A DNA stretch of 64,000 bases. Source: Macrostomum lignano (taxonomy: Eukaryota). This document shows positions 8,268-64,000 of the stretch, piece by piece (position 1 is the stretch's first letter; the number at the start of each line of letters is the position of its first letter). The DNA is taken from assembly GCA_002269645.1 (NCBI GenBank), contig NIVC01002848.1:71727-135726 (forward strand). The letters run 5' to 3'. Made by a program: the position numbers and the translations under genes. Below the pieces are notes generated by a model, which was given only the letters and a program-made list of their open reading frames with translations, had not been told where the DNA came from and searched no databases.

Positions 8268-8600
8268 GGCGATTCTCAACAGAGGAATTGGAGGGCGATT
8301 CTCAACAGGGGAATTGGAAGGCGATTCTCAACAGAGGAATTGGAGGGCGATTCTCAACAGGGGAATTGAAGGGCGATTCTCAAGAGTTCGGGGGCGATTC
8401 TCAATAGGAGTTGGGGGCGATTCTCAACAGGAGTTGGGGGCGATTCTCAATAGGGGAATTGGAGGGCGATTCTCAACAGAGGAATTGGAGGGCGATTCTC
8501 AACAGGGGAATTGGAAGGCGATTCTCAACAGGAGTTGGGGCGATTCTCAATAGGGATTGGGGCGATTCTCAACAGGAGTTGGAGGGCGATTCTCAATGGC
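8268..8600. repeat. Minisatellite, ~22-26 bp unit (gggcgattctcaacagaggaattgga)
   Basis: Direct tandem copies visible. Confidence 0.9.
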
Positions 8601-17685: not shown

Positions 17686-18251
17686 TAGAGTACTGAGAAA
17701 TCTATCTTCTAACACTGGGTTTCCCCACTGATTATTAAATTGCTTGCTCATAATATTAAATGGCTTGCAAAAAGTTATACTACTAGCCATTGAGGAAACC
17801 CCCATTCAGTGCGTGTCTATGGAAAAAACCCCTCACCCTACGGGAGCTCCATATAGGCCGCAAATTGTCTACTGCCAGCGGATTGGTTGATTTTGGAAAA
17901 TGTTGGATTATGGCGCTGTTAGTTATACCATAGAATAATAAAGATCAGTGAGGAGTGATGTCAAAAATCAGTTGCAAAGCCCAAGGAAGCAATTTATAAA
18001 TAGAAGAGAGAAGCAGAAGAAAAACGAAAAGCAAAATTAATGCATTCAATCAACTTGAAGAATCTACATGATGGAGAACCTATAGCCTAGATGGATTCTC
18101 GTCAGCTGAGTTGGATTTTAGACTACGCCCCCAGCGCGGTGACTGCGACTGGAGATGAAATTTCAAGGTTGAAAACTATCGGATCAAGATGAGTTAGGCC
18201 ATAGACAGTGAAAACTAACTGAGAGACAAGCAAATCTAACAATCTAAAGTA

Positions 18252-42778: not shown

Positions 42779-45700
42779 ATGCTAGGCTTAGATTTTGTCG
42801 ATTTTGTGCAGAAATGGCAGATTTCAAATTACGTAAGCGTTGAAGATTTCGCGGACAAGTTTAATTCGCTGTTCAGCACCCTACTGCTGATCCTATGCGC
42901 GCTGATTATCTCCGCTAAGCAGTACGTCATGCAAGCCCTCAGCTGCAACTGTCCCAAAACTAATGCCGGAAAAACTATTGAGTACGTTGAGAACTTCTGC
43001 TGGGTCACCGGGACTTACGCGATTGGCGAGCACGAGGAACTGCCAGTAAAGGAAGCCGGGTGGAAGCTGTTTGAGTCCAGGCGGATCAGTGAGAAGTTTT
43101 TATGAGTTTATTTTTGCGCGTTCCTGTTGAGAACATTAGCAGGAAAAACGAGAGAGCAAGCCTCGATAGAGCATGAGAAACGTGAGAGCAAGTCTCGATG
43201 GAGCATGAGAAACGTGAGAGCAAGTCTCGATAGAGCATGAGAAACGTGAGAGCAAGTCTCGATGGAGCATGAGAAACGTGAGAGCAAGTCTCGATGGAGC
43301 ATGAGAAACGTGAGAGCAAGTCTCGATGGAGCATGAGAAACGTGAGAGCAAGTCTCGATGGAGCATGAGAAACGTGAGAGCAAGTCTCGATGGAGCATGA
43401 GAAACGTGAGAGCAAGTCTCGATGGAGCATGAGAAACGTGAGAGCAAGTCTCGATAGAGCATGAGAAACATGAGAGAAAGTCTTGATAGAGCATGAGAAA
43501 CGTGAGAGCAAGTCTCGATAGAGCATGAGAAACATAAGAGAAAGTCTCGTTAGAGCATGAGAAATTGAGAGCGTACACAACCGCCCCGAGCAAGACACTG
43601 CTCAGATTCTACTCAGCAAGTATTTTAACAAAAATGTAACAAAGACACAATCACACGCCAAATAAAACATTTCAGATTACTACCAATGGGTGCCATTCAT
43701 GCTAGGCCTACAATGCGTCATGTTCTATCTGCCGCATCTAATCTGGGTTGCTATAGTAACAAATCGACTTGGTTCAGACGCGCAATACCTAGTAACGGAA
43801 GCCGCTTCGGTTGCTAAGGAAACCAGCATTGATCGCCGCGATCAGGTGTTGAATCACCTGGCTAATTCGGTGCTGCACATGCAGACCGTACACCGGGAGT
43901 ACAGCGATGGCCGATTGGCCAAATTCCGTAGCAAGCTGGTCCGCCTAGCCGGAGTCTGCTTTCCCAGCAAGCGACTTGGCACGGCGCTGGTGTTTGCCTA
44001 CCTGCTTGTCAAGCTGCTGTACCTGGCTAACTGCTTCGGTCAGCTGTTCCTAATGCACAGCTTCCTCGGCCTTGGCGGGCATCATTTGGCGGTTACTAAC
44101 CGTACCGCTGGAAGCTTGAATACCGCTGCCCGTCCCGGCTTGCTCGCCGAGATGCTGGGCTGGGACCTGGTGGCTGCCGTAGCCAGCGGGCGCGACTGGC
44201 ACTCTGGCATGTTCCCGAGGTCCACCCTGTGCCGAGTCAGACTGCTCAGCGTCGGTCACGAGGTTCTGGTGTGCCAGTGCGCACTGCCGGTCAATATGCT
44301 CAATGAAAAGGTAGAGCAAGGGGGATTGTGGAGTGGATGTTTTTACATTGAGCCCTTCTAGAGACCCTGACACTCTTTAGGAAGACCCTGACACTCTTCA
44401 GGAGACCCTGACACTCTTTAGGGAGACCCTGACACTCTTCTAGAGACCCTAACACTCTTCAGGAGACCCTGACACTCTTCAGGGGACCCTGACAGTCTTC
44501 AAAAGACCCTGACACCCTTCTAGAGACCCTGACACTCTTCAGGAGACCCTGACAGTCTTCAAGAGACCCTGACACCATTCTAGAGACCCTGACACTCTTT
44601 AGGAAGACCCTGACACTCTTTAGGGAGACCCTGACACTCTTCTAGAGACCCTGACACTCTTCAAGAGACCCTGACACTCTTCAGGAGACCCTGACAATCT
44701 TCTAGAGACCCTGACACTCTTCAGGAGACCCTGACACTCTTCAGGGGATCCTGACAGTCTTCAAGAGACCCTGACACCCTTCTAGAGACCCTGACACTCT
44801 TCAGGAGACCCTGACACTCTTCAGGAGACCCTGACACTCTTCAGGGGACCCTGACACTCTTCAGGAGACCCTGACACTCTTCAGGGGATCCTGACAGTCT
44901 TCAAGAGACCCTGACACTCTTCAGGAGACCCTGACACTCTTCAGGGGACCCTGACAGTCTTCAAGAGACCCTGACACTCTTAAAGAGACCCTGACACTCT
45001 TCAAGAGACCCTGACACCCTTCTAGAGACCCTGACACACTAGAGACCCTGACACACTAGACAGCCCGACACCCTAGAGACCCTGACACCCTAAAGACCCT
45101 GACACGCTTTTAGGGACCAAAAAAGACCTACAAGAGTTCCTGACACATTTCTGACTGAATTTGAGCATGAATAAGCACACAGCAACCCTGCAGAACTTAT
45201 ATAAATTAATCAATCAATTAAAACAAACTAAATTGTTATGGAACAAAATGGGCAAAAGCTAGTGTCTCAATAGATTATTAATACGTCACAGATCCAAGCC
45301 CGAAAGCATTTAAAACTGCACTACATCAGTTCAAAGCTTTAGTGCGAATGTTATTTTTAATTTAAAAACTGGATCCCCAGTTTTTTCTTTTGTTTAAGTC
45401 TGCTATCTCAGCAAACCACCAAATGAAAGCTGAAACTGTGCGAAATTATGCTGACTCGGCAAAATTTTAGCAAAGTTTTTTGCAAGTAGCTCGCTACCAA
45501 AATCTTTTTCATTTCTGCAACATCAGGGGTCTGATTACTGGTTTGCTATCCAGTTTTTGCGTCTGCTTTTGTCGCTCAAGAAAAGAATCCGAACATTTTT
45601 CTTTCCGTGGAGCTCGGCATTGACTTTGAATACAGCAGTGTGAAAGTTTTACATCCAAAACGGCAGAGGGAGAGACAGAGGGAGAGACAGAGGGAGAGAC

Positions 45701-48700
45701 AGAGGGAGAGACAGAGGGAGAGACAGAGGGAGAGACAGAGGGAGAGACAGAGGGAGAAGGAGAGGGAGACACAGAGGGAGAGACAGAGGGAGACACAGAG
45801 GGAGAGACGGAGGGAGAGACAGAGGGAGAGACAGAGGGAGAGACCGAGGGAGAGACAGAGGGAGAGACAGAGGGAGAGACAGAGGGAGAGACAGAGGGAG
45901 AGACAATGAGAGATAGAGGGAGAGACAGAGGGAGAGACAGAGGGAGAGACAATGAGAGATAGAGGGAGAGACAGAGGGAGAGACCGAGGGAGAGACAGAG
46001 GGAGAGACAGAGGGAGAGACAGAGGGAGAGACGGAGGAAGAGCCAGAGGGAGACACAGAGGGAGAGACAGAGGGAGACACAGAGGGAGAGACGGAGGGAG
46101 AGCCAGAGAAAGAGACAGAGGGAGAGAGAGAGGGAGAGACAGAGGGAGAGACAGTGAGACACGGAGGGAGAGACAGAGGGAGAGACAGAGGGAGAGACAG
46201 AGGGAGAGACAGAGGGAGAGACAGAGGGAGAGACAGGGAGAGACGGAGGGAGAAACAAAGGGAGAGGGAGAGACAGAGGGAGAGACAGAGGGAGAGACAG
46301 AGGGAGAGACAGAGGGAGAGACGGAGGGAGAGACAGAGGGAGAGACAGAGGGAGACACAGAGGGAGAGACGGAGGGAGAACCAGAGGGAGAGACAGAGGG
46401 AGAGACCGAGGGAGAGACAGAGGGAGAGACAGAGGGAGAGACAGAGGGAGAGACAGAGGGAGAGACCGAGGGAGAGACAGAGGGAGAGACAGAGGGAGAG
46501 ACAATGAGAGATAGAGGGAGAGACAGAAAGAGAGACAGAGGGAGAGACAGAGGGAGAGACAGAGGGAGAGACGGAGGAAGAGCCAGAGGGAGACACAGAG
46601 GGAGAGACAGAGGGAGACACAGAGGGAGAGACAGAGGGAGAGACAGAGGGAGAGACAATGAGAGATAGAGGGAGAGACAGAGGGAGAGACAGAGGGAGAG
46701 ACAGAGGGAGAGACAGAGGGAGAGACAGAGGGAGAGACGGAGGGAGAGACAGAGGGAGAGACGGAGGGAGAGCCAGAGGGAGAGACAGAGGGAGAGACAG
46801 AGGGAGAGACAATGAGAGATAGAGGGAGAGACAGAGGGAGAGACAGAGGGGGACAGAGGGAGAGACAGAGGGAGAGACGGAGGGAGAAACAGAGGGAGAG
46901 ACAGAGGGAGAGACCGAGGGAGAGACAGAGGGAGAGACAGAGGGAGAGACAATGAGAGATAGAGGGAGAGACAGAGGGAGAGACAGAGGGAGAGACAGAG
47001 GGAGAGACAGAGGGAGAGACGGAGGAAGAGCCAGAGGGAGAGACAGAGGGAGAGACAGAGGGAGAGACCGAGGGAGAGACAGAGGGAGAGACAGAGGGAG
47101 AGACAATGAGAGATAGAGGGAGAGACAGAGGGAGTGACAGAGGGAGAGACAGAGGGAGAGACAGAGGGAGAGACGGAGGAAGAGCCAGAGGGAGACACAG
47201 AGGGAGAGACAGAGGGAGACACAGAGGGAGAGACGGAGGGAGAGCCAGAGGAAGAGACAGAGGGAGAGACAGAGGGAGAGACAGAGGGAGAGACAGTGAG
47301 AGATAGAGGGAGAGACAGAGGGAGAGACAGAGGGAGAGACCGAGGGAGAGACAGAGGGAGAGACAGAGGGAGAGACAGGGAGAGACGGAGGGAGAAACAA
47401 AGGGAGAGGAAGAGACAGAGGGAGAGACAGAGGGAGAGACAGAGGGAGAGACAGAGGGAGAGACGGAGGGAGAGACGGAGGGAGAGACAGAGGGAGACAC
47501 AGAGGGAGAGACGGAGGGAGAACCAGAGGGAGAGACAGAGGGAGAGACAGTGAGAGAGACAGAGGGAGAGACAGTGAGAGACAGAGGGAGAGACAGAGGG
47601 AGACACAGAGGGAGAGACGGAGGGAGAGACAGAGGGAGAGACAGAGGGAGAGACAGAGGGAGAGACCGAGGGAGAGACAGAGGGAGAGACAGAGGGAGAC
47701 ACAGAGGGAGAGACGGAGGGAGAACCAGAGGGAGAGACAATGAGAGATAGAGGGAGAGACAGAGGGAGAGACAGAGGGGGACAGAGGGAGAGACAGAGGG
47801 AGAGACAGAGGGAGAGACAGAGGGAGAGACAGGGAGAGACGGAGGGAGACACAGAGGGAGAGACAGAGGGAGAGACAGAGGGAGAGACAGAGGGAGAGAC
47901 GGAGGGAGAGCCAGAGGGAGAGACAGAGGGAGAGACAGAGGGAGAGACGGAGGGAGAGCCAGAGGGAGAGACAGAGGGAGAGACAGAGGGAGAGACAGAG
48001 GGAGACACAGTGGGAGAGACGGAGGGAGAGACAGAGAGAGACAGAGGGAGAGACAGAGGGAGAGACAGAGGGAGAGACAGAGGGAGAGACAGAGGGAGAG
48101 ACAGAGGGAGAGACAGAGGGAGAGACCGAGGGAGAGACAGAGGGAGAGACAGAGGGAGAGACAATGAGAGATAAAGGGAGAGACAGAGGGAGAGACAGAG
48201 GGAGAGACAGAGGGAGAGACAGAGGGAGAGACGGAGGAAGAGCCAGAGGGAGACACAGAGGGAGAGACAGAGGGAGACACAGAGGGAGAGACGGAGGGAG
48301 AGCCAGAGGAAGAGACAGAGGGAGAGACAGAGGGAGAGACAGAGGGAGAGACAGTGAGAGATAGAGGGAGAGACAGAGGGAGAGACAGAGGGAGAGACAG
48401 AGGGAGAGACAGAGGGAGAGACAGAGGGAGAGACAGGGAGAGACGGAGGGAGACACAGAGGGAGAGACAGAGGGAGAGACAGAGGGAGAGACAGAGGGAG
48501 AGACGGAGGGAGAGCCAGAGGGAGAGACAGAGGGAGAGACAGAGGGAGAGACGGAGGGAGAGCCAGAGGGAGAGACAGAGGGAGAGACAGAGGGAGAGAC
48601 AGAGGGAGACACAGTGGGAGAGACGGAGGGAGAGACAGAGAGAGACAGAGGGAGAGACAGAGGGAGAGACAGAGGGAGAGACAGAGGGAGAGACAGAGGG

Positions 48701-51700
48701 AGAGACAGAGGGAGAGACAGAGGGAGACAGAGGGAGAGACAGAGGGAGAGACAGAGGGAGAGACAGAGAGAGACAGAGAGAGACAGAGGGAGAGACAGAG
48801 AGAGAGACAGGGAGAGACAGAGGGAGAGACAGAGGGAGAGACAGAGGGAGAGACAGAGAGAGACAGAGGGAGAGACAGAGGGAGAGACAGAGAGAGACAG
48901 AGGGAGAGACAGAGAGAGAGACAGGGAGAGACGGAGGGAGAGCCAGAGGGAGAGACAGAGGGAGAGACAGAGGGAGAGACGGAGGGAGAGCCAGAGGGAG
49001 AGACAGAGGGAGAGACAGAGAGAGAGACAGAGGGAGACACAGAGGGAGAGACAGAGGGAGAGCCAGAGGGAGAGACAGAGGGAGAGACAGAGGGAGAGAC
49101 AGAGGGAGACACAGTGGGAGAGACGGAGGGAGAGACAGAGAGAGACAGAGGGAGAGACAGAGGGAGAGACAGAGGGAGAGACAGAGGGAGAGACAGAGGG
49201 AGAGACAGAGGGAGAGACAGAGGGAGACAGAGGGAGAGACAGAGGGAGAGACAGAGGGAGAGACAGAGAGAGACAGAGAGAGACAGAGGGAGAGACAGAG
49301 AGAGAGACAGGGAGAGACAGAGGGAGAGACAGAGGGAGAGACAGAGGGAGAGACAGAGAGAGACAGAGGGAGAGACAGAGGGAGAGACAGAGAGAGACAG
49401 AGGGAGAGACAGAGAGAGAGACAGGGAGAGACGGAGGGAGAGCCAGAGGGAGAGACAGAGGGAGAGACAGAGGGAGAGACGGAGGGAGAGCCAGAGGGAG
49501 AGACAGAGGGAGAGACAGAGAGAGAGACAGAGGGAGACACAGAGGGAGAGACAGAGGGAGAGCCAGAGGGAGAGACAGAGGGAGAGACAGAGGGAGAGAC
49601 AGAGGGAGACACAGTGGGAGAGACGGAGGGAGAGACAGAGAGAGACAGAGGGAGAGACAGAGGGAGAGACAGAGGGAGAGACAGAGGGAGAGACAGAGGG
49701 AGAGACAGAGGGAGAGACAGAGAGAGACAGAGGGAGAGACAGAGGGAGAGACAGAGGGAGAGACAGAGAGAGAGACAGGGAGAGACAGAGGGAGAGACAG
49801 AGGGAGAGACAGAGGGAGAGACAGAGAGAGAGACAGAGGGAGAGACAGAGGGAGAGACAGAGAGAGACAGAGGGAGAGACAGAGAGAGAGACAGGGAGAG
49901 ACGGAGGGAGAGCCAGAGGGAGAGACAGAGGGAGAGACAGAGGGAGAGACCTAGGGAGAGCCAGAGGGAGAGACAGAGGGAGAGACAGAGGGAGAGACAG
50001 AGGGAGACACAGAGGGAGAGACAGAGGGAGAGACAGAGGGAGAGACAGAGGGAGAGACGGAGGGAGAGACAGAGGGAGAGACCGAGGGAGAGACAGAGGG
50101 AGAGACAGAGGGAGAGACAGAGGGAGAGACAGAGGGAGAGACGGAGGGAGAGCCAGAGGGAGAAACAAAGGGAGAGGGAGAGACGGAGGGAGAGCCAGAG
50201 GGAGAGACCGAGGGAGAGACAGAGGGAGAGACAGAGGGAGAGACAGAGGGAGAGACGGATGGAGAGCCAGGCGGAGAGACAGAGGGAGAGACAGAGGGAG
50301 AGGGAGAGACGGAGGGAGAGCCAGAGGGAGAGACAGAGGGAGAGACAGAGGGAGAGACGGAGGGAGAGCCAGAGGGAGAGACAGAGGGAGAGACAGAGGG
50401 AGAGACAGAGGGAGAGACAGAGAGAGACAGAGGGAGAGACAGAGGGAGAGACAGAGGGAGAGACAGAGAGAGACAGAGGGAGAGACAGAGGGAGAGACAG
50501 AGGGAGAGACAGAGAGAGACAGAGAGAGACAGAGGGAGAGACAGAGAGAGAGACAGGGAGAGACAGAGGGAGAGACAGAGGGAGAGACAGAGGGAGAGAC
50601 AGAGAGAGAGACAGAGGGAGAGACAGAGGGAGAGACAGAGAGAGACAGAGGGAGAGACAGAGGGAGAGACAGAGGGAGAGACAGAGAGAGACAGAGGGAG
50701 AGACAGAGGGAGAGACAGAGGGAGAGACAGAGGGAGAGACAGAGGGAGAGACAGAGGGAGAGACAGAGGGAGAGACAGAGGGAGAGACAGAGGGAGAGAC
50801 GGAGGGAGAGCCAGAGGGAGAAACAAAGGGAGAGGAGAGACGGAGGGAGAGCAGAGGGAGAGACAGAGGGAGAGACAGAGGGAGAGACAGAGGGAGAGAC
50901 AGAGGGAGAGACGGAGGGAGAGCCAGAGGGAGAAACAAAGGGAGAGGAGAGACGGAGGGAGAGCAGAGGGAGAGACAGAGGGAGAGACAGAGGGAGAGAC
51001 AGAGGGAGAGACAGAGGGAGAGACGGATGGAGAGCCAGAGGGAGAGACAGAGGGAGAGACAGAGAGAGACAGAGGGAGAGACAGAGAGAGACAGAGAGAG
51101 ACAGAGGGAGAGACAGAGAGAGAGACAGGGAGAGACAGAGGGAGAGACAGAGGGAGAGACCGAGGGAGAGACAGAGGGAGAGACAGAGGGAGAGACAGAG
51201 GGAGAGACAGAGGGAGAGACGGAGGGAGAGCCAGAGGGAGAAACAAAGGGAGAGGGAGAGACGGAGGGAGAGCCAGAGGGAGAGACAGAGGGAGAGACAG
51301 AGGGAGAGACAGAGGGAGAGACAGAGGGAGAGACGGAGGGAGAGCCAGAGGGAGAAACAAAGGGAGAGGGAGAGACGGAGGGAGAGCCAGAGGGAGAGAC
51401 CGAGGGAGAGACAGAGGGAGAGACAGTGGGAGAGACAGAGGGAGAGACGGATGGAGAGCCAGAGGGAGAGACAGAGGGAGAGACAGAGAGAGACAGAGGG
51501 AGAGACAGAGAGAGACAGAGAGAGACAGAGGGAGAGACAGAGAGAGAGACAGGGAGAGACAGAGGGAGAGACAGAGGGAGAGACAGAGGGAGAGACAGAG
51601 GGAGAGACAGAGGGAGAGACAGAGGGAGAGACAGGCGGAGAGACAGAGGGAGAGACAGGGAGAGACAATGAGAGATAGAGGGAGAGACAGAGTGAGAGAC

Positions 51701-52485
51701 AGGCAGAGAGACAGAGGGAGAGACAGAGGGAGAGAGGGGGATCGAGACAGAGGGAGAGACAGAGGGAGAGACAGAGGGGGACAGAGGGAGAAACAGAGGG
51801 AGAGAGAGGGAGAGACAGAGGGAGAAACAAAGGGAGAGGGAGAGACAGAGGGAGAGACAGAGGGAGAGACAGAGGGGGACAGAGGGAGAGACAGAGGGAG
51901 AGACAGAGGGAGAGACAGAGGGAGTGACAGAGGGAGAGACAGAGGGAGACAGAGTGAGTTTCAGAATAGCAGAAGCAGGTAGCGGGAATCATGCTCAGAG
52001 GCCATCAACCCCAAGCCAGATGACAAACGCCGCCCCCGCAGGTGTACATGATGCTGTGGCTGTGGACCCTGGCGGCAGCCTTCATCACGGTGCTCTCCGT
52101 GCCAGTCTGGTTTGCCAGAGTCGGCCTCCGAGTCAGCAGAATTCGCTTCATCCGACGCCAGCTGCTGCTGTCCCAGACTCCAATAATGACTGGCCATGAA
52201 TATCGGTCAGCCAGCACTGGCAAACCCAGATTAGTCGCAGATAAGTGCAACTTTGCCAAGATGGCCAAAGACATGGTGGACAACCTGCTGCACGCTGACG
52301 GCGTGTTCCTGTTCAAGATGATGCAGCTGAATGCAGGCGACGTCGCCGCGGGCCAAGTGCTGCGTCGGCTGTACGAGAACTGGAAGCATCAGCTGGCCGA
52401 CACGCCGGCAGAGAAGTTGACGATAAGTGAGCCTGGCCAGGAGAAACCGCCGAAAACTTCGGAGAAGAACTTAGTAGTAGTGTGA
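42779..52485 (+). CDS. inx: Innexin (gap-junction protein), 3 exons, 462 aa
   Basis: Exons 42779-43088, 43676-44310 and 52042-52485 splice in frame; signatures VEDFADKFN, KQYV, N|YYQWVPF, FPRSTLC and LPVNMLNEK|VYMMLWLW. Confidence 0.95.
43150..43570. repeat. 32-bp minisatellite in innexin intron 1
   Basis: gagcatgagaaacgtgagagcaagtctcgatg repeated. Confidence 0.95.
44360..45110. repeat. ~21-bp minisatellite in innexin intron 2
   Basis: gagaccctgacactcttcagg repeated. Confidence 0.93.
45662..51955. repeat. 6.3-kb purine-rich satellite, 12-bp core gagggagagaca, in innexin intron 2
   Basis: Direct reading; recurring variant blocks indicate higher-order duplication. Confidence 0.97.
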
Positions 52486-56580: not shown

Positions 56581-58809
56581 CTTGAAATGAGATTGGCGCG
56601 AAAGAAAATAATAAATATGGATACTATTCGGAGCGTGGACGTGTAATTATGTATGTACATGTAAGATACTAAACAAGAGATATTAGATAAGATAAAAAAG
56701 ATCTCATAGAGGGGCGAGTGTACATTAAGGTTTGGCGCAGAGGATAGAGGGGATAGAGGGACGAGTGTACTGTAGTGTGAGCATCTTTTGCGATAGCCTT
56801 GTATTCTATTAGTTGGGTTTTGCATTATTGTTATTGAATTATTATTTTGCTTTAGTTAGTCATACGTTTTTGGTGTACTTTTTCCTTGTTAGTTAGAATC
56901 AATTTTGCGTAAACAGGTTAGAGTTAGACGCCATTTGTGACTCAGCGGAGGGTTAAGTTGTCTGCGAACCCCAGCTTTGCGCGGTCAGCCAATCAGAACC
57001 GGCCTGGACCCTGGCACGCGGCAAGTTTCAATTCTACCCGGCGCCGCGGGCACAGTGCAATTCGGCTTAAGCAAGCGGCCGGCCAGACGACCACCACCCG
57101 GCTTGAGGGGGGTTTTGAGGGGTTGTGACTCTGACTATATATGAAAGTGTGTTTGGCAATCAGATCTCGCCTTCCTTTCCGCCTTCTCTTTCCCCGGTTT
57201 TGTCTTGTCCAGTTCCCGGCCGGTGGCCCGATTTCTCCTCTCTTGTTGGTTCGCGCTTTGAGGCGCCTGAATTCATCACCCCCGGTCCATATTTTTGTTC
57301 CCGCCCAACCGCTTTAGTCTTGTGGTGTAACGCCTACGGCAAATTCCTGTCTGAAGTCGTCGCTATCAAGCGCGGTTAGATAGAGACTGTCGGATCTGAT
57401 CAAGTACGCGGCCTCGATCCCGAGGGCCTCAGTGTTACACTGAAGGGCAGTGCCGATAGAATTTAGTCGGTACTCCGTTGAACGGTCGGTTCGGCAGGGC
57501 TCTCGTTTGAGTGTAGGTTCTGGCTTAGGCCAGGGGTTAGGAGTCTTTCTCCGTGGTCCTGTGTTCGGTTCTTCTCCTTCTTCTTCAAGCTGAGATCCGC
57601 TTGTCAGTGCGTAAAATAATCATTATTATTAATCGTTACTATTCGTTATCATCAGTCTAATTATCTGCGCCGCGAATTGCTTGAATCCTGTAGCTTGAAT
57701 AATCAAATTAAATCGTCTAACCAATTATCAGTTTGTATCATATAGGATTATCACTCTCTAAATCTTTCGGTTTGTGTTCCCTCGTGTTCTTTATTTTCTT
57801 GTACTGTACCTGCGGCTATTGGAGAAGACTGGTAGGACTCGCCGACCGGCGATAGGCGATTAGGATTAATAGCTTTAAAATCTCTGACGCTCCAAGTAGG
57901 TTTGTCTAGGGCCTAATTAATTGCTCACCGTGCATGCTATTTATCTAATTGCCTATTTATCACAGTACATTGGGGTTTGGCGTAGAGGATAGAGGGGATG
58001 GAGGGGCGAGTGTACATTGGGGTTTGGCGTAGAGGATAGAGGGGATGGAGGGGCGAGTGTACATTGGGGTTTGGCGTAGAGGATAGAGGAGGGGATAAAG
58101 GGACGAGTGTACATTGGGGTTTGGCGTAGAGGATAGAGGGGATAGAGGGGCGAGTGGACATTGGGGTTTGGCGTAGAGGATAGAGGGGATAGAGGGACGA
58201 GTGTACATTGGGGTTTGTCGTAGAGGATAGAGGGGATAGAAGGACGAGTGTACATTGGGGTTTGGCGTAGAGGATAGAGGGGATAGAGGGGCGAGTGTAC
58301 ATTGGGGTTTGGCGTAGAGGATAGAGGAGGGGATAAAGGGGCGAGTGTACATTGGGGTTTGGCGTAGAGGATAGAGGAGGGGATAAAGGGACGAGTGTAC
58401 ATTGGGGTTTGGCGTAGAGGATAGAGGGGATAGAGGGGCGAGTGTACATTGGGGTTTGGCGTAGAGGATAGAGGAGGGGATAAAGGGACGAGTGTACATT
58501 GGGGTTTGGCGTAGAGGATAGAGGGGATGGAGGGGCGAGCGTACATTGGGGTTTGGCGTAGAGGATAGAGGGGATAGAGGGACGAGTGTACATTGGGGTT
58601 TGGCGTAGAGGATAGAGGGGATAGAGGGGCGAGCGTACATTGGGGTTTGGCGTAGAGGATAGAGGGGATAGAGGGACGAGTGTACATTGGGGTTTGGCGC
58701 AGAGGATAGAGGGGATAGAGGGGCGAGTGTACATTGGGGTTTGGCGCAGAGGATAGAGGGGATAGAGGGGCGAGTGTACATTGGGGGTTGGCGTAGACGA
58801 TAGAGGGTC
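55850..58809. repeat. G-rich minisatellite (gagtgtacattggggtttggcgtagaggatagagggg core) in two AK3 introns
   Basis: Blocks at 55850-56100, 56705-56770 and 57965-58809. Confidence 0.9.
56771..57964 (+). mobile_element. Solo LTR (1194 bp) of a second family, inserted in the minisatellite
   Basis: TGT...ACA termini; 4-bp TSD GTAC (56767-56770 and 57965-57968); the repeat unit resumes exactly after it; CCAAT (~56988) and TATA-like ctatatatg (~57135). Confidence 0.85.
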
Positions 58810-59387
58810 AGTAGTAGTATGTTATAAGGGGCTGCGCCACACTTAATTGCTCGGGCGCATTGCGCGCCAGCTCGCTGGATGACTCAGCCCCTTATAACAT
58901 ACTACTACTACCAGGAGGTCATGGATTCAAGTGGGTGTGTGATATGTAAATATACATATATCTGTGAGTGAGGGTGTTGAGGGTGAGGGCATGTGGGGGG
59001 CATTGGCCTGTGGAATATTTCACCGAACACAGATTTTCCGGAATTTTTATACTTTTAAAAAGGGGGGGTGCCCTCGCCCTCATGCCCTCACTCATTTTGA
59101 AAATCACTAAAAATAAGTGAAAAATGACTAAAAACAGGTGAAAATGGTCTGAAAACAGCGATTTTTTGTGATTTTCTAATTTTTTTAAAAAGTGCAATTT
59201 TCACGATTCCAGCTCTAAAACCATGAGAAAAGTTGGATTCACGGGTCAATTTAATGCAATTTCAGGTATATACAATATGAAAGTGTCATCTAATTTGACG
59301 ATAGTAAATTTTATATATATAAAATGGCCTTCAGTAAACCATTATTTCTAGGAAATGCTTTAGATATTCAGTCAGGTATAGACATAA

Positions 59388-60158
59388 TTGACAATTAGGC
59401 ATAATCGCCATATAAAAATGAATGATAAAAATGAACACATCTATCCTGTGGTTGAGCTGCATGAAGCAGATTTGAGGGAGCGGGACTATTTCAATCAGAG
59501 AAAGGGTGAAATCAAAGGCAGTATTGAATGCATTACGAAAGATCTTACAATTTATAGCAAAAAGGTAAAAAAGTACAAACGACAAAGTAGCAGGATAAAT
59601 TGGATCAACATTGTGACAGGAAATGTAAGTCTCTTGGCTGCTACAGGAATTGGCATAGCAACATCGATACTGACATTGAATCCCTTAGTTATTGGAGTAG
59701 TAATCGGGGCAATGAGTGGTTTTGAAGCTGTAAAATCCACGTCGTTGTTTGCAACTGTGAAAATTCATTGCCAAAAGCAGAAGGCAAAATACATTGTTCT
59801 CAGAGATCTGGCCAATAAATACAGAGAGAGATTATATATTTACTCCCAAAAAGCAGTTGATGATTATAGATTAACTCTTGAAGAGGTTCAAGCAGCTACT
59901 GCAATTTATTCAGAATACAGAGAGAAAAGAGATCAATTGTTAGACGCCGGTGTTGCGCCTGAAGAAGTTAACCATTCGGAAGTCGTTGATAAAATTCTCA
60001 AAGAGAGTAGACTTGGTCATTCAGCGAAGGAAAAAATTAAAAAGGAACTGCTGGAGAAAGATCTGAGAGAAAAATTGGGTCTAGCCGATAAGCCAAAAGA
60101 GTACTCGGCAACACTCAATCTTCAATCAAATGCTCCAACTGCACCCCCCTATGCTTGA
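59388..60158 (+). CDS. Polinton-associated protein with a central hydrophobic hairpin, function unknown
   Basis: Intact 256-aa ORF (the true start may be MNDKNEHIYP); IYP...KKYKR...two hydrophobic segments...KAVDD pattern that I recall from ORFs next to animal Maverick polB genes. Confidence 0.65.
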   Translation: MTIRHNRHIKMNDKNEHIYPVVELHEADLRERDYFNQRKGEIKGSIECITKDLTIYSKKVKKYKRQSSRINWINIVTGNVSLLAATGIGIATSILTLNPLVIGVVIGAMSGFEAVKSTSLFATVKIHCQKQKAKYIVLRDLANKYRERLYIYSQKAVDDYRLTLEEVQAATAIYSEYREKRDQLLDAGVAPEEVNHSEVVDKILKESRLGHSAKEKIKKELLEKDLREKLGLADKPKEYSATLNLQSNAPTAPPYA

Positions 60159-60182: not shown

Positions 60183-63100
60183 ATGGAAAGGAAAATACCA
60201 GCGGCCTCTTATGAATATGATCTCGACACCGTTGAAGAAATTCACGGTTTAATCTCCCCAATTCTTTCTAAACATTTGATGGCTAGAGATTCAATAAAAT
60301 ACAGAATTTCCTTTGTCGCAGAATTTTATAAAGGAACTACCGACAGTTGGATTGAGTTCCAATATCATTCAAAGTATCGAACTTTGTTAAATCTGCTTCA
60401 AGTTGAAGATAGTATTGAAAGTACAATAAGGGATGTTCTGGATGAATTTGATGAATGGAAGGATAGTTTTAATGAAAGGGGATCGGGATATTATTTTGTT
60501 AAGTTAGTAAAGATTGTGTTGAAAGTTGTTGGCATTAATCAGTTGAAAGGAGGAACTTATATTTCAATTCCAATTAAATCAAACGCATTAGTAAATGTCA
60601 AGAACACTAAAGACAATAGGTGCTTTCTCTGGTCTATTTTAGCAAAGCTCCATCCTGTGAAGGAACATAGATATAGAGTTGGTAAGTATACACAGTATAT
60701 AAATGAAATAAACTTAGGAGACGTTAAATTTCCAGTGGACATTCGAGATATCTCTGACATTGAAAAGTTGAACAGTCTTCATATAAATGTGTTTGGATTA
60801 AGGGATATAAATACTAAAGAGTCAATATATTCTATTCGTCTGACAGAAGATTACGACAACCCCAATGTTATTGATTTACTACTTGTCAAAAATCATTATT
60901 GTTTAATAACAGACTTGTGTTTATTCCTCACGTCCCAAAATTACAACAGGGTTTTTCTTTGTCGAAAGTGTCTTCAAGTCAAATACTCCCAGGATGCACT
61001 GGATAATCATAAAGCAATCTGTAATGACTTCAAAGTGTCAATTGAAGTTCCAAAGATTGATAAGAGGATATTAAAGTTTAAAAACTACCACATGAGTGTA
61101 AGAAAACCATTTGTGTTTTATGCAATATTAGATTATGTAACGATGGATGATAAATCACTAGAGCTATCACAATGGACACTTTTTACTAGTTCCGACTATG
61201 AGGACATTATAAAATCAAATATTATTTCAAATACTACAGTGGAATCATTCGTTGAAACCGTAATAAAAAAGTTTGAGCATATAAAAAATGAAATGGATAG
61301 ATATAAACATCCAAGATTAAGTGATGTCGAAGAGACTGATTACAAAGCGGCAGAACAATGTTTTCTCTGCTCAAGGCCATTTGTAGATAGTAAAAAAATT
61401 CGAGAGCATAATCACTACAATGGTAAATATCGTGGCGCAGCATGTCAATCATGTAATACCAAAGAGGGCAAGGCGAATCAAACAGTACCGTTGTTTCTCC
61501 TGAATGAATCTGGAAAAGATCTAAACTATTTGATAGCTCCATTAACACGAATGAATAATAAAAAATATATATTGGATTTTATTTCTAAAACATCGGAAGA
61601 CCATGTTGCAATTAAGTTGGGGAATTATACCAGTGGTGTTGTGTTTTTAGATGGATCTAGGTTTTTGGAACCACCATTTACACTCTCTAAAGAAGAAATA
61701 AAATATTTGCCACCCAGTGATACAACAGCAGTAATTAGAAAGATTTACTCATTTGTCAATGCTTTTGAGAAGTTTCGATCAACATTTTTGAAATATTTCA
61801 AGATAGATCCTGCGTATTGCTTTTCCCTTTCTGGATTATCGTGGGCATGTGGGTTGAAATATACTAATGTGGAATTGGAATTACTTGGTGATAAAGAAAT
61901 GATATCCATGGTAGAAAGTGGTATTCGCGGCGGTTTCTCTGGAGTTCTTGGAGATCGATATAAAAAAATGAATAACAAGTATTTAGAAAGTTATGACAGC
62001 AATTCTGAATCGTCGTACATGCTATACTTGGACAAGAATAATTTATATGGTGAAGCAATGATGAAAAATCTACCTGTGGGAGATTTCAAGTTTGAAAATG
62101 ATCTAGAGTATCACAAGAATATTCCTAATGGCAGGGGTTGTTTTCTTGAAGTTGACCTTCAATATACAGAGGAATGTAAGAAAGCTACAAGTAAATATCC
62201 ACTGGCTCCTGAGAAACGAACAACTAGGTTTGAGGATTTATCTGACATACAGAAGCAATACCTCGAAGTCGAAAAGAAAAAGTTTGTTCAATCCAAGTTG
62301 AATGTTGACATTTTACAACAAGGAGAAATATGTTTTACATCACAGACTACTTGAGTTTTATGAGAAGATGGGCATGCGAGTTGCGAGAGTTTATAGAATT
62401 CTTTCATTCAAAGAGTCAAACTGGTTGAGTAAATACATCGAATTTAATACCAGGCGGAGAATGGAAGCAAAAACTAAATTTGAGAAAGACCTGTGGAAAC
62501 TACTAAACAACTCATTCTACGGTAAAACAATCGAAAATGTAAAGAATAGGTCGAACTTTCATCTTGTAGCTGAAGAAAAAACTGCAAGGCGTTATTTTTC
62601 CAAACCAAATTTCAAAGATTTCATTATGTTTAGTGAGGATGCGGTTGGTATCCAAATGTACAAAAAGACAATTGCGTGTGACAAGCCAATTTATTTAGGA
62701 ATGGCTATTCTGGATTATGCAAAAATGTTCATGTACGATTGCTATTACAATGTTATTGAGAAGAATTGGAACAGCTGTCAATTGCACTATTCTGATTGTG
62801 ATTCGCTGATATTCTCAGTGATTACTCAGGATGTTTATGAGGATCTTGAAAAAATTAAAGAACACTTAGACACATCGGATTATCCAAGAGAGCATCCACT
62901 ATACTCCGAGACGAACAAGAAAGTCATTGGAAAGTTGAAAGATGAAATGAATGGCTCAATAATTTCCGAAGCTGTATTCCTGCGGTCAAAGGAGTATGCT
63001 TTCACTACAGTTTCAGGGGAGTGTGTTACGATCAAGGGGGTTTGATAAAAGCAGTACAAATATAAAGTTTGAAACATTTAAAAACATACTATGACAGATT

Positions 63101-63251
63101 ACAAAGATATTCAAAGAGGTAGAGTAAGTATGATGTATCTGAAAAAATAAAAATATATATTCGTGAGATTATGAAACAAACAATGAGTCCGTTAGATGAT
63201 AAAAGATATTATTTGGATCCTATCAGATCTATTCCTCATCAGCCAATGTAA
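60183..63251 (+). pseudogene. polB: Protein-primed family B DNA polymerase (pPolB), frameshifted in this sequence
   Basis: RCFLWSILA; endonuclease VII-like REHNHYNGKYRGAACQSCN; polymerase motifs YLDKNNLYG, KLLNNSFYGKT, YSDCDS, KVIGKLKDE and SPLDDKRY. One extra base at ~62301 and further indels after ~63037. Confidence 0.92.
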
Positions 63252-63272: not shown

Positions 63273-64000
63273 TTATTTTTTTACACATAAAAACAGAACA
63301 TTTTTAGTTTCTTGCTGTTTACCATCTATCCTACGCCTATATCTATCCTTATAATACTTACAATAGTCATTGTGATTCTTGAAGAAATCTGTTATGTATT
63401 GTTGTTGGAATTCACGTTTCTCACGTTGGGCTAGAGTCCTATAGTATTCACTCTCTGTTGGCGGCAGTGTAAATTTCTCTAACAAGCATAAATGTTTTTT
63501 CCTCAGTTTCTAAAAATTCATAATTCTCTTCAAAGAAGTGAGCAAACCAATTACAATTCTGTATGAATTCATTAGTGTTTTCAATTACATTTTGAGATAG
63601 ATATATTTTCACCCTTTGTTTGCTTGAAAATTTCTAGTAGGTGTTTCATCTCAGAAACTTATATTTAGTCTTAAACTCCTCACTTTTCAAATATGATCGG
63701 CCTTGCTAAGTGTGTTTCTCAGGCATCAATGATTTCGTTATCTGTTGTATATTTGCACGGGTAATTAATATTGATAATTTCCTCTTCTCTGCATCTCCAA
63801 TATTTTGTCTAAAGTCAGGCTTGTTATTACATTCGACTATTAGGGTTGCGTGTTAAAACGACATTACACTGGCTTGAATATAAATTTCTAGGCTTGGATA
63901 ACCCCACACAGTTAGTAATTTTATTGATGCATTGTTCAAGACACCACTTACTTCTTGACTGATAACTAACCTCTTTTTATTAATTTGTGCTAGGGGCTTG
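63273..64000 (-). pseudogene. D5-like SF3 helicase, C-terminal half, multiply frameshifted
   Basis: Manual translation across indels: LAQINKKRLVISQEVSGVLNNASIKLLT / GVIQA / RNLYSSQ / HATLIVECNNKPDF...DAEKRK / NWFAHFFEENYEF / EKREF...KNVLFLCVKK. This matches the Walker B, motif B' (ARxLY), sensor-1 (CNxxP) and Arg-finger layout of D5-like helicases. Confidence 0.7.

Follow-up and report, generated by a model that had tools for sequence, protein, structure and literature searches.

The 64,000-nucleotide stretch analysed here (hereafter the window; positions 71,727 to 135,726 of contig NIVC01002848.1 of Macrostomum lignano) contains an inverted repeat of 100 bp, which is the tip of the terminal inverted repeat (TIR) of an 18-kb Polinton family. 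The TIR is followed by genes that include a protein-primed DNA polymerase (PolB) and the end of a primase-helicase gene (Table 1). The window stops at the contig end, and the remainder of the element was taken from contigs of genome G000 (C numbers below). Integrated copies and assembled contigs were used as data.

Table 1 Hairpin-bearing Polinton end and its insertion site in the window
Feature	Position	Strand	Remarks
Target-site duplication (TSD) AGGGTC, 6 bp	58804..58809	+	Edge of 47-bp minisatellite (57965-58807); same 6-mer after the far end; present once in empty alleles
Outer arm, the element terminus, AGT triplets first	58810..58834	+	Sequence
50-nt asymmetric loop, orientation fixed	58835..58884	+	3.4 % variation vs 7.5-9 % in the inner TIR
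Inner arm, co-varies with the outer arm	58885..58909	-	Perfect reverse complement of the outer arm
Left TIR, about 575 bp	58810..59384	+	94.2 % identity to the far-end TIR on C4019
246-aa open reading frame (ORF), no Pfam match, also in hairpin-less sister elements	59418..60158	+	
Protein-primed PolB, N-terminal frame	60183..62354	+	Terminal-protein domain, vOTU, EndoVII/HNH insert, palm motif A
PolB C-terminal part, motifs B and C	62302..63251	+	Frame-broken in the window copy
PrimPol-PriCT2-D5N-SF3 primase-helicase gene, C-terminal end	63275..64000	-	Start approximate; contig ends at 64000

The two 25-bp arms are perfect reverse complements at the coordinates reported in a preliminary description of this DNA, with a 50-nt loop between them (49-50 nt across copies). 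The arm sequence occurs twice in the window against zero expected by chance, and the hairpin region folds at -33.9 kcal/mol (z -6.6). A branched shape like that of the ends of adeno-associated virus (AAV) had also been proposed, based on two mini-palindromes in the loop. These exist as sequence (58855-58865 and 58867-58878, at 20 and 6 nt from the stem), but their arms neither fold nor co-vary. As written they need loops of 1 and 2 nt, so that only 4-bp stems are possible. When both arms were forced, the energy was -27.3 kcal/mol compared with -32.1 for the unbranched best fold, or 4.8 kcal/mol worse. Only 46 of the 62 independent ends described below have the first mini-palindrome intact, and when 41 distinct ends were compared, none of the 8 mini-arm pairs had changed on both sides versus 6 of the 25 stem pairs. 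Fold energies and the absent co-variation therefore speak against a T- or Y-shaped fold of the parvovirus and AAV type, and the strand carrying the 3' end is predicted to form an unbranched rod (-34.8 kcal/mol) with its last base paired.

Both ends of six contig spans, 17.8-18.7 kb long, have the hairpin, with TIRs of about 570-590 bp. Matching 6-bp TSDs border four of them, whereas in the other two (C67 and C3947) ends from separate insertions were joined. The 6-mers outside 72 terminal ends, 59 of them distinct, gave 16 TSD partner pairs where 0.4 were expected; the length control gave 16 pairs at six bases, one at five and none at seven. The far end of the window copy, whose retrieval the preliminary description had called for, also carries the hairpin (G000:C4019:17104-17202) and is followed by AGGGTC as anticipated. 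The minisatellite, which had been expected to resume there, does not, because the insertion hit the edge of the array: two empty alleles (C1475 and C23) have AGGGTC once, at the minisatellite edge. No separate TSD flanks the 100 bp, and the earlier view of a Polinton terminus rather than a mini-element stood. A stand-alone 100-bp mini-element was also rejected by direct search, as intact arms with unrelated DNA on both sides were seen in 0 of 93 contexts, except for one internal relic whose flanks are common to several copies. The exact arm pattern found 58 loci (control matches, 0), the loop pattern found 91 sites with different flanks, and the contig sets of four public runs from three studies cover the hairpin.

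The hairpin element encodes a double-jelly-roll capsid protein, an A32-like ATPase and an rve integrase (PF21738, PF04665 and PF00665, all over the cut-off), in addition to a PolB with an EndoVII insert. An 833-aa protein matches PriCT-2 and D5_N over the cut-off and Prim-Pol and helicase families weakly. PolB aligns to Polinton PolBs and its best fold matches are viral protein-primed PolBs. A PDB fold search gave no match at E<=0.001. One 143-aa ORF without a Pfam match has His, Asp, Gln and Cys in a protease-like order (judged by eye only) and is a tentative candidate for the adenovirus-like maturation protease. The element thus has the size (13-25 kb), TIR length (100-1,500 bp), TSD (5-8 bp), protein-primed PolB, integrase, ATPase and capsid of Polintons/Mavericks; the size and TIR ranges are those of PMC10748475.

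Loop orientation was scored from the inner TIR alone in integrated copies. The loop lay the same way round in all 64 ends of a first set, and later in 80 of 93 distinct contexts with none flipped, the other 13 being internal relics, truncated ends or unreadable; all 80 orientable ends thus agree. Setting aside 16 contexts (relics, truncated ends and those with indels or unreadable bases) and merging duplicates left 62 independent flanks, which place the upper 95 % bound of the flop share at about 5 %. The two loop orientations (flip/flop) suggested previously were therefore not observed, and the asymmetric loop shows that there was no hairpin transfer in integrated copies. No strand-changing joint was listed for the run contigs, a weak result given the 25-bp stem and one that we did not count against flop.

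The arms are perfect in 47 of the 62 independent ends, and these perfect arms are of eight sequence types. Ten of 29 variant arm alleles are mirrored in both arms of one end, four of them private to a single end. Mirrored cells numbered 46 compared with a shuffle mean of 8.8, and 39 compared with 10.7 in a second set (41 distinct ends). Because relatedness inflates such shuffle tests, the private mirrored cases weigh more; the allele-level hypergeometric test is weak (10 mirrored against 6 expected, P = 0.024). In 4 of the 16 TSD-paired insertions, including the window copy, a mirrored change separates the two ends, each of which is perfect in itself; between paired ends, the inner TIRs show 0-20 substitutions per 300 bp. 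With the reservation of collapsed repeats, the arms are therefore matched within an end and not from end to end. Variation is 3.4-4.3 % in the first 100 bp, the most conserved part of the TIR, and 7.5-9 % further in. An older end with 74 % TIR identity has kept the orientation and has new arm letters common to both sides. This co-variation shows that the element end folds locally.

The polymerase of the hairpin elements has lost its exonuclease motifs. Motifs I and II are degenerate and the motif III region is deleted in 6/6 full copies, whereas the closest homologs keep all three motifs; the vOTU Cys/His residues and palm motifs A-C are kept in the same six copies when frame breaks are allowed for. 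The terminal-protein domain occupies residues ~8-117 of the N-terminal frame, which models as an alpha/beta terminal-protein fold with the predicted linking residue, Ser101, in a Gly-flanked loop that follows helix 2 and precedes the last strand, a position matching the description of the linking residue in bioRxiv 10.1101/2024.03.18.585575. When shared variants were counted over 12 copies, this domain was found to be under purifying selection (11 synonymous, 9 non-synonymous, P = 0.0006), as were the palm and the primase-helicase. In the remnant between exonuclease motifs II and III, shared variants look neutral (3 synonymous, 10 non-synonymous) but the remaining class does not (8 and 3), at numbers too low for a verdict. 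Every copy that spans the primase and SF3 motifs has them intact. A fragmented element on C2974 has the same exonuclease-dead PolB at about 60 % identity, together with the primase-helicase. In addition, a 228-aa restriction-enzyme-like ORF (Pfam RE_Eco47II; L032:7236-7919, minus strand), for which no solved structural relative was found, lies near the right end of most hairpin copies. It is missing from three hairpin copies and from all examined ends of the sister variant 1b, which keeps a short remnant of its start.

Variant 1b shares an 8,388-bp block of integrase and capsid genes with a hairpin element at 98.4 % identity. Its 1,275-aa PolB has intact exonuclease motifs, it has no primase-helicase, and its TIR is 71 % alike. 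The hairpin was absent from all 30 of its ends, which have no terminal repeat longer than 4 bp. Family 2, known from partial elements, has a different capsid and an exonuclease-intact, EndoVII-bearing PolB; its 21 ends have no hairpin either, and the primase-helicase is absent from the 1b elements and family-2 regions examined. The hairpin is thus dispensable for integration and independent of EndoVII. Cruciform cutting by EndoVII was accordingly rejected as the reason for the hairpin, as the hairpin-less polymerases have the same domain. A single divergent relative, about 50 % identical in capsid and integrase, also ends in a hairpin, one of 113 bp whose sequence is unrelated. Where it is visible, the hairpin tracks the helicase and replication module rather than the integrase-capsid block. 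No relatives were found in IMG/VR with polymerase and capsid queries. Scans with the primase-helicase gave two loci without an inverted repeat of at least 12 bp in their available parts and matched eight further distant loci, and none of the 72 polymerase loci from a metagenome scan had a recognisable terminus.

Several other features of these elements were recorded. Some elements contain relic terminal hairpins, which precede a small accessory ORF on its upstream side and have flanks shared between loci (C2232 element positions 17709-17786; C255:611986-612084). A block of ~7 kb with the polymerase and primase-helicase occurs in opposite orientations among family copies (C2232:171455-190172 and C3947 versus C4094:36378-54642), and either end of hairpin-family elements may adjoin the integrase or the helicase. 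One subtype only has a second, internal inverted repeat of 101 bp with unrelated sequence and ~31-bp arms, followed by ~135-bp direct repeats (C4094 element positions 8451-8551; also C4788, C67, C5112 and C4019); it may be an internal origin. The heptamer TGACTCA, which straddles the border of the loop and the inner arm (58880-58886), recurs beside this internal repeat and in 1b ends, and resembles an AP-1 site. Family-2 ends (e.g. L269-L288) have three or more subterminal direct repeats of ~75 bp. Polintons are often nested or adjacent (C1874, C273:213682, C2719:99690-103568 and C1391:140853), for example 1b within the helicase gene of a hairpin element, hairpin ends within a PolB gene, or a hairpin element abutting a family-2 end. 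A fibre-like ORF at L039:9087-9854 (minus strand) combines short tandem repeats with an F5/8 type C domain. The window itself is rich in mini- and microsatellites (45664-51949; 7278-58807), including a 6.3-kb array of a 12-bp unit, and its long ORFs outside the element are mostly repeat-derived.

From the hairpin at both ends, the fixed loop, the co-varying arms, the 6-bp TSD and the co-occurring module, we infer a mechanism of four steps, in which the 100-bp hairpin would be a fold-back end origin for helicase-assisted, protein-primed replication. It is the explanation that we favour, with a likelihood just short of even. The SF3 helicase, and not the polymerase, would unwind the genome and thereby expose single-stranded ends. 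The 3' terminal 100 nt would then fold into the 25-bp duplex, which would replace the long end-to-end panhandle. On this folded duplex the terminal-protein domain would prime at the 3' AGT triplets, so that the end would be restored and the loop would not be inverted. Copying on the folded strand, either by intramolecular template switching or by 3'-end repair, would keep the two arms matched. A more specific and rather doubtful version is that the primase-helicase copies the body of the genome while the proofreading-less, protein-primed polymerase only primes and patches the ends on the 100-nt fold-back, and that hairpin TIR, polymerase and primase-helicase move as one module between capsid blocks; by analogy, such an element might be a eukaryotic-virus counterpart of Streptomyces end patching.

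A number of observations weigh against the fold-back origin. Nineteen of the 29 variant arm alleles are one-sided, 13 of them private. The differences between paired ends could partly reflect collapsed assembly repeats, as some contigs join different insertions, and the window overlaps C4019 at only 97.5 %. Template switching mirrors the arms of any inverted repeat with a short spacer, and mirrored arms are therefore a sign of folding and not of function. The association with the module amounts to one module swap plus one other family, and variants 1a and 1b differ across the whole TIR (71 % identity), beyond the hairpin. For the divergent relative with a hairpin, replication genes are missing, the divergent exonuclease-dead module on C2974 has no recoverable ends, and the nuclease gene biased towards the hairpin family offers a possible nicking route for self-priming. 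No extrachromosomal or single-stranded molecule was observed in the integrated copies and assembled contigs.

Among the other explanations, the one that survives best, though we consider it unlikely, is that the PrimPol-SF3 enzyme loads and primes at the stem-loop and itself copies the element, with replacement of the polymerase still under way. Hairpin and primase-helicase occur together, the loop has about twice the conservation of the inner TIR, a pattern suggestive of a protein-binding site, and both replicase turnover and two-replicase elements have been described (PMC11296320; bioRxiv 10.64898/2026.10.13.758929; bioRxiv 10.64898/2026.07.28.741278). A polymerase on its way out does not agree with palm and terminal-protein domains still under purifying selection, nor with an exonuclease-dead polymerase that has stayed with the helicase through about 40 % protein divergence, and copying by the primase only would not restore exact linear ends. 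This role is partly compatible with the fold-back origin, as an added one.

Self-priming with asymmetric resolution was judged marginally less probable again. Here the 3' end would fold back and prime, and an element nuclease would resolve the junction such that a single loop orientation survives, a resolution that the hairpin model of the Halocafeteria preprint would require in this element. The 3' strand does fold with its last base paired, and extension on the fold-back would account for the mirrored arms. Parvovirus left ends with one orientation have been described (PMC1185569), and hairpin priming has been proposed for virophage and Polinton-like virus (PLV) palindromes tied to non-pPolB replicases (bioRxiv 10.64898/2026.07.28.741278). 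The RE_Eco47II-like ORF adjoining the right end of most hairpin copies is the best handle on this idea, but three hairpin-family copies lack it, and EndoVII occurs in hairpin-less polymerases too. No HUH Rep/NS1 nickase was found in 16 Pfam scans of element ORFs, from which a few small ORFs were left out, and an outer arm extended into an inner-TIR copy was found in 0 of 93 contexts. The self-priming ends of the preliminary description are thus kept as an alternative and disfavoured, because the terminal-protein domain (under purifying selection), the predicted linking serine and the AGT triplets are all retained.

It is improbable, to a greater degree, that the hairpin is a by-product without a role, where one template switch duplicated the terminus inward and an error-prone polymerase homogenises the arms. 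Template switching homogenises inverted-repeat arms in many genomes (PMC8604942), and the same integrase moves sister elements that have no hairpin. Neutral switching inverts spacers as well, according to the same source, but no inverted loop was seen in the 80 orientable ends. Nor would a by-product be expected to be the most conserved part of the TIR, or to have a counterpart of similar size and unrelated sequence in the relative at about 50 % protein identity. Finally, an assembly fold-back or chimera, named earlier as a possible refutation, is refuted to the point of being negligible, since despite indel errors and mis-joined copies in the assembly the loop sites have different flanks, the TSD pairs far exceed expectation, empty alleles exist and contigs from three studies cover the hairpin.

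The literature searched, which excluded subscription journals and Repbase, yielded no description of an animal Polinton with a terminal fold-back. The preliminary description regarded self-priming or flip/flop ends as a mode not known to be described for Polintons; terminal palindromes have been reported, and hairpin priming proposed, for virophages and PLVs of protists (bioRxiv 10.64898/2026.07.28.741278), but for animal Polintons no such proposal came up in the searches. What is added here is a fixed orientation, locally mirrored arms and a near-isogenic, hairpin-less sister. The cited papers, in their accessible parts, give no experimental demonstration of how Polinton replication starts and ends are restored, and their models assume an end-to-end panhandle (PMC4046053). 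The 2026 preprint proposes self-priming of palindromic ends and calls for tests, of which this locus supplies three: the asymmetric loop, the mirrored arm changes and near-identical elements with and without the hairpin. The near-identical pair links the hairpin with the replication module instead of with integration, and with Macrostomum lignano, a laboratory flatworm, as host the question of Polinton replication is directly testable on natural DNA.

When compared with known systems, the family is a Polinton member without a parvovirus-type end. AAV and parvovirus ends are terminal hairpins of T or Y shape with flip/flop orientations and a Rep/NS1 nickase. Like them, the flatworm element has a palindrome of ~100 nt at each terminus and a 3' end that is paired; it differs in having no T/Y shape, no flip/flop and no Rep/NS1 nickase found, and has an integrase and TSD instead.

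Polintons/Mavericks with an EndoVII/HNH-bearing PolB of the pPolB2 type (PMC10748475) have the same 18-kb size, ~575-bp TIRs, 6-bp TSD, AG...CT ends, rve integrase, A32-like ATPase, double-jelly-roll capsid and PolB terminal-protein and vOTU domains. The hairpin family differs from ordinary Polintons in its terminal 100-bp fold-back, its lost exonuclease motifs and its added PrimPol-PriCT2-D5N-SF3 gene, none of which occurs in the two ordinary Polinton lineages of the same genome; hairpins or palindromes are not mentioned in the accessible part of that paper. Exonuclease loss accompanied by gain of a separate SF3 helicase, with terminal protein, vOTU and palm kept, is described for Mavirus-type pPolB (bioRxiv 10.1101/2024.03.18.585575). 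Here the same combination arose within an animal Polinton polymerase clade, in which the closest homologs keep all three exonuclease motifs, and the helicase is fused to a primase. Replication-module turnover has been described (PMC11296320; bioRxiv 10.64898/2026.10.13.758929).

The endogenous virophages and PLVs of Halocafeteria seosinensis, for which the hairpin-priming model was proposed (bioRxiv 10.64898/2026.07.28.741278), likewise have, at both ends, a palindrome that lies in the TIR beside the TSD. It is linked to non-pPolB replication genes, and some of these elements carry pPolB and a D5 primase-helicase. The search that found their palindromes allowed gaps of up to 10 nt (a 52-nt palindrome in subtype 5), whereas the loop here is 49-50 nt long and asymmetric, so that its orientation is readable, and fixed; the flatworm element also has an animal host and a near-isogenic sister without the hairpin. 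The authors of that work propose hairpin priming, while the flatworm Polinton data favour protein priming. The telomeres of Streptomyces linear replicons are protein-capped, and their 3' strand folds back on an internal copy and templates repair of the tip, with no flip/flop described in the accessible text (PMC5449611). They are bacterial, use Tap/Tpg without a family-B polymerase (which the hairpin element does encode), and have seven packed palindromes and a proven internal origin. The likeness would thus be one of working only, and by this analogy the fold-back scheme may work like a Streptomyces linear-replicon telomere and not like AAV hairpin transfer.
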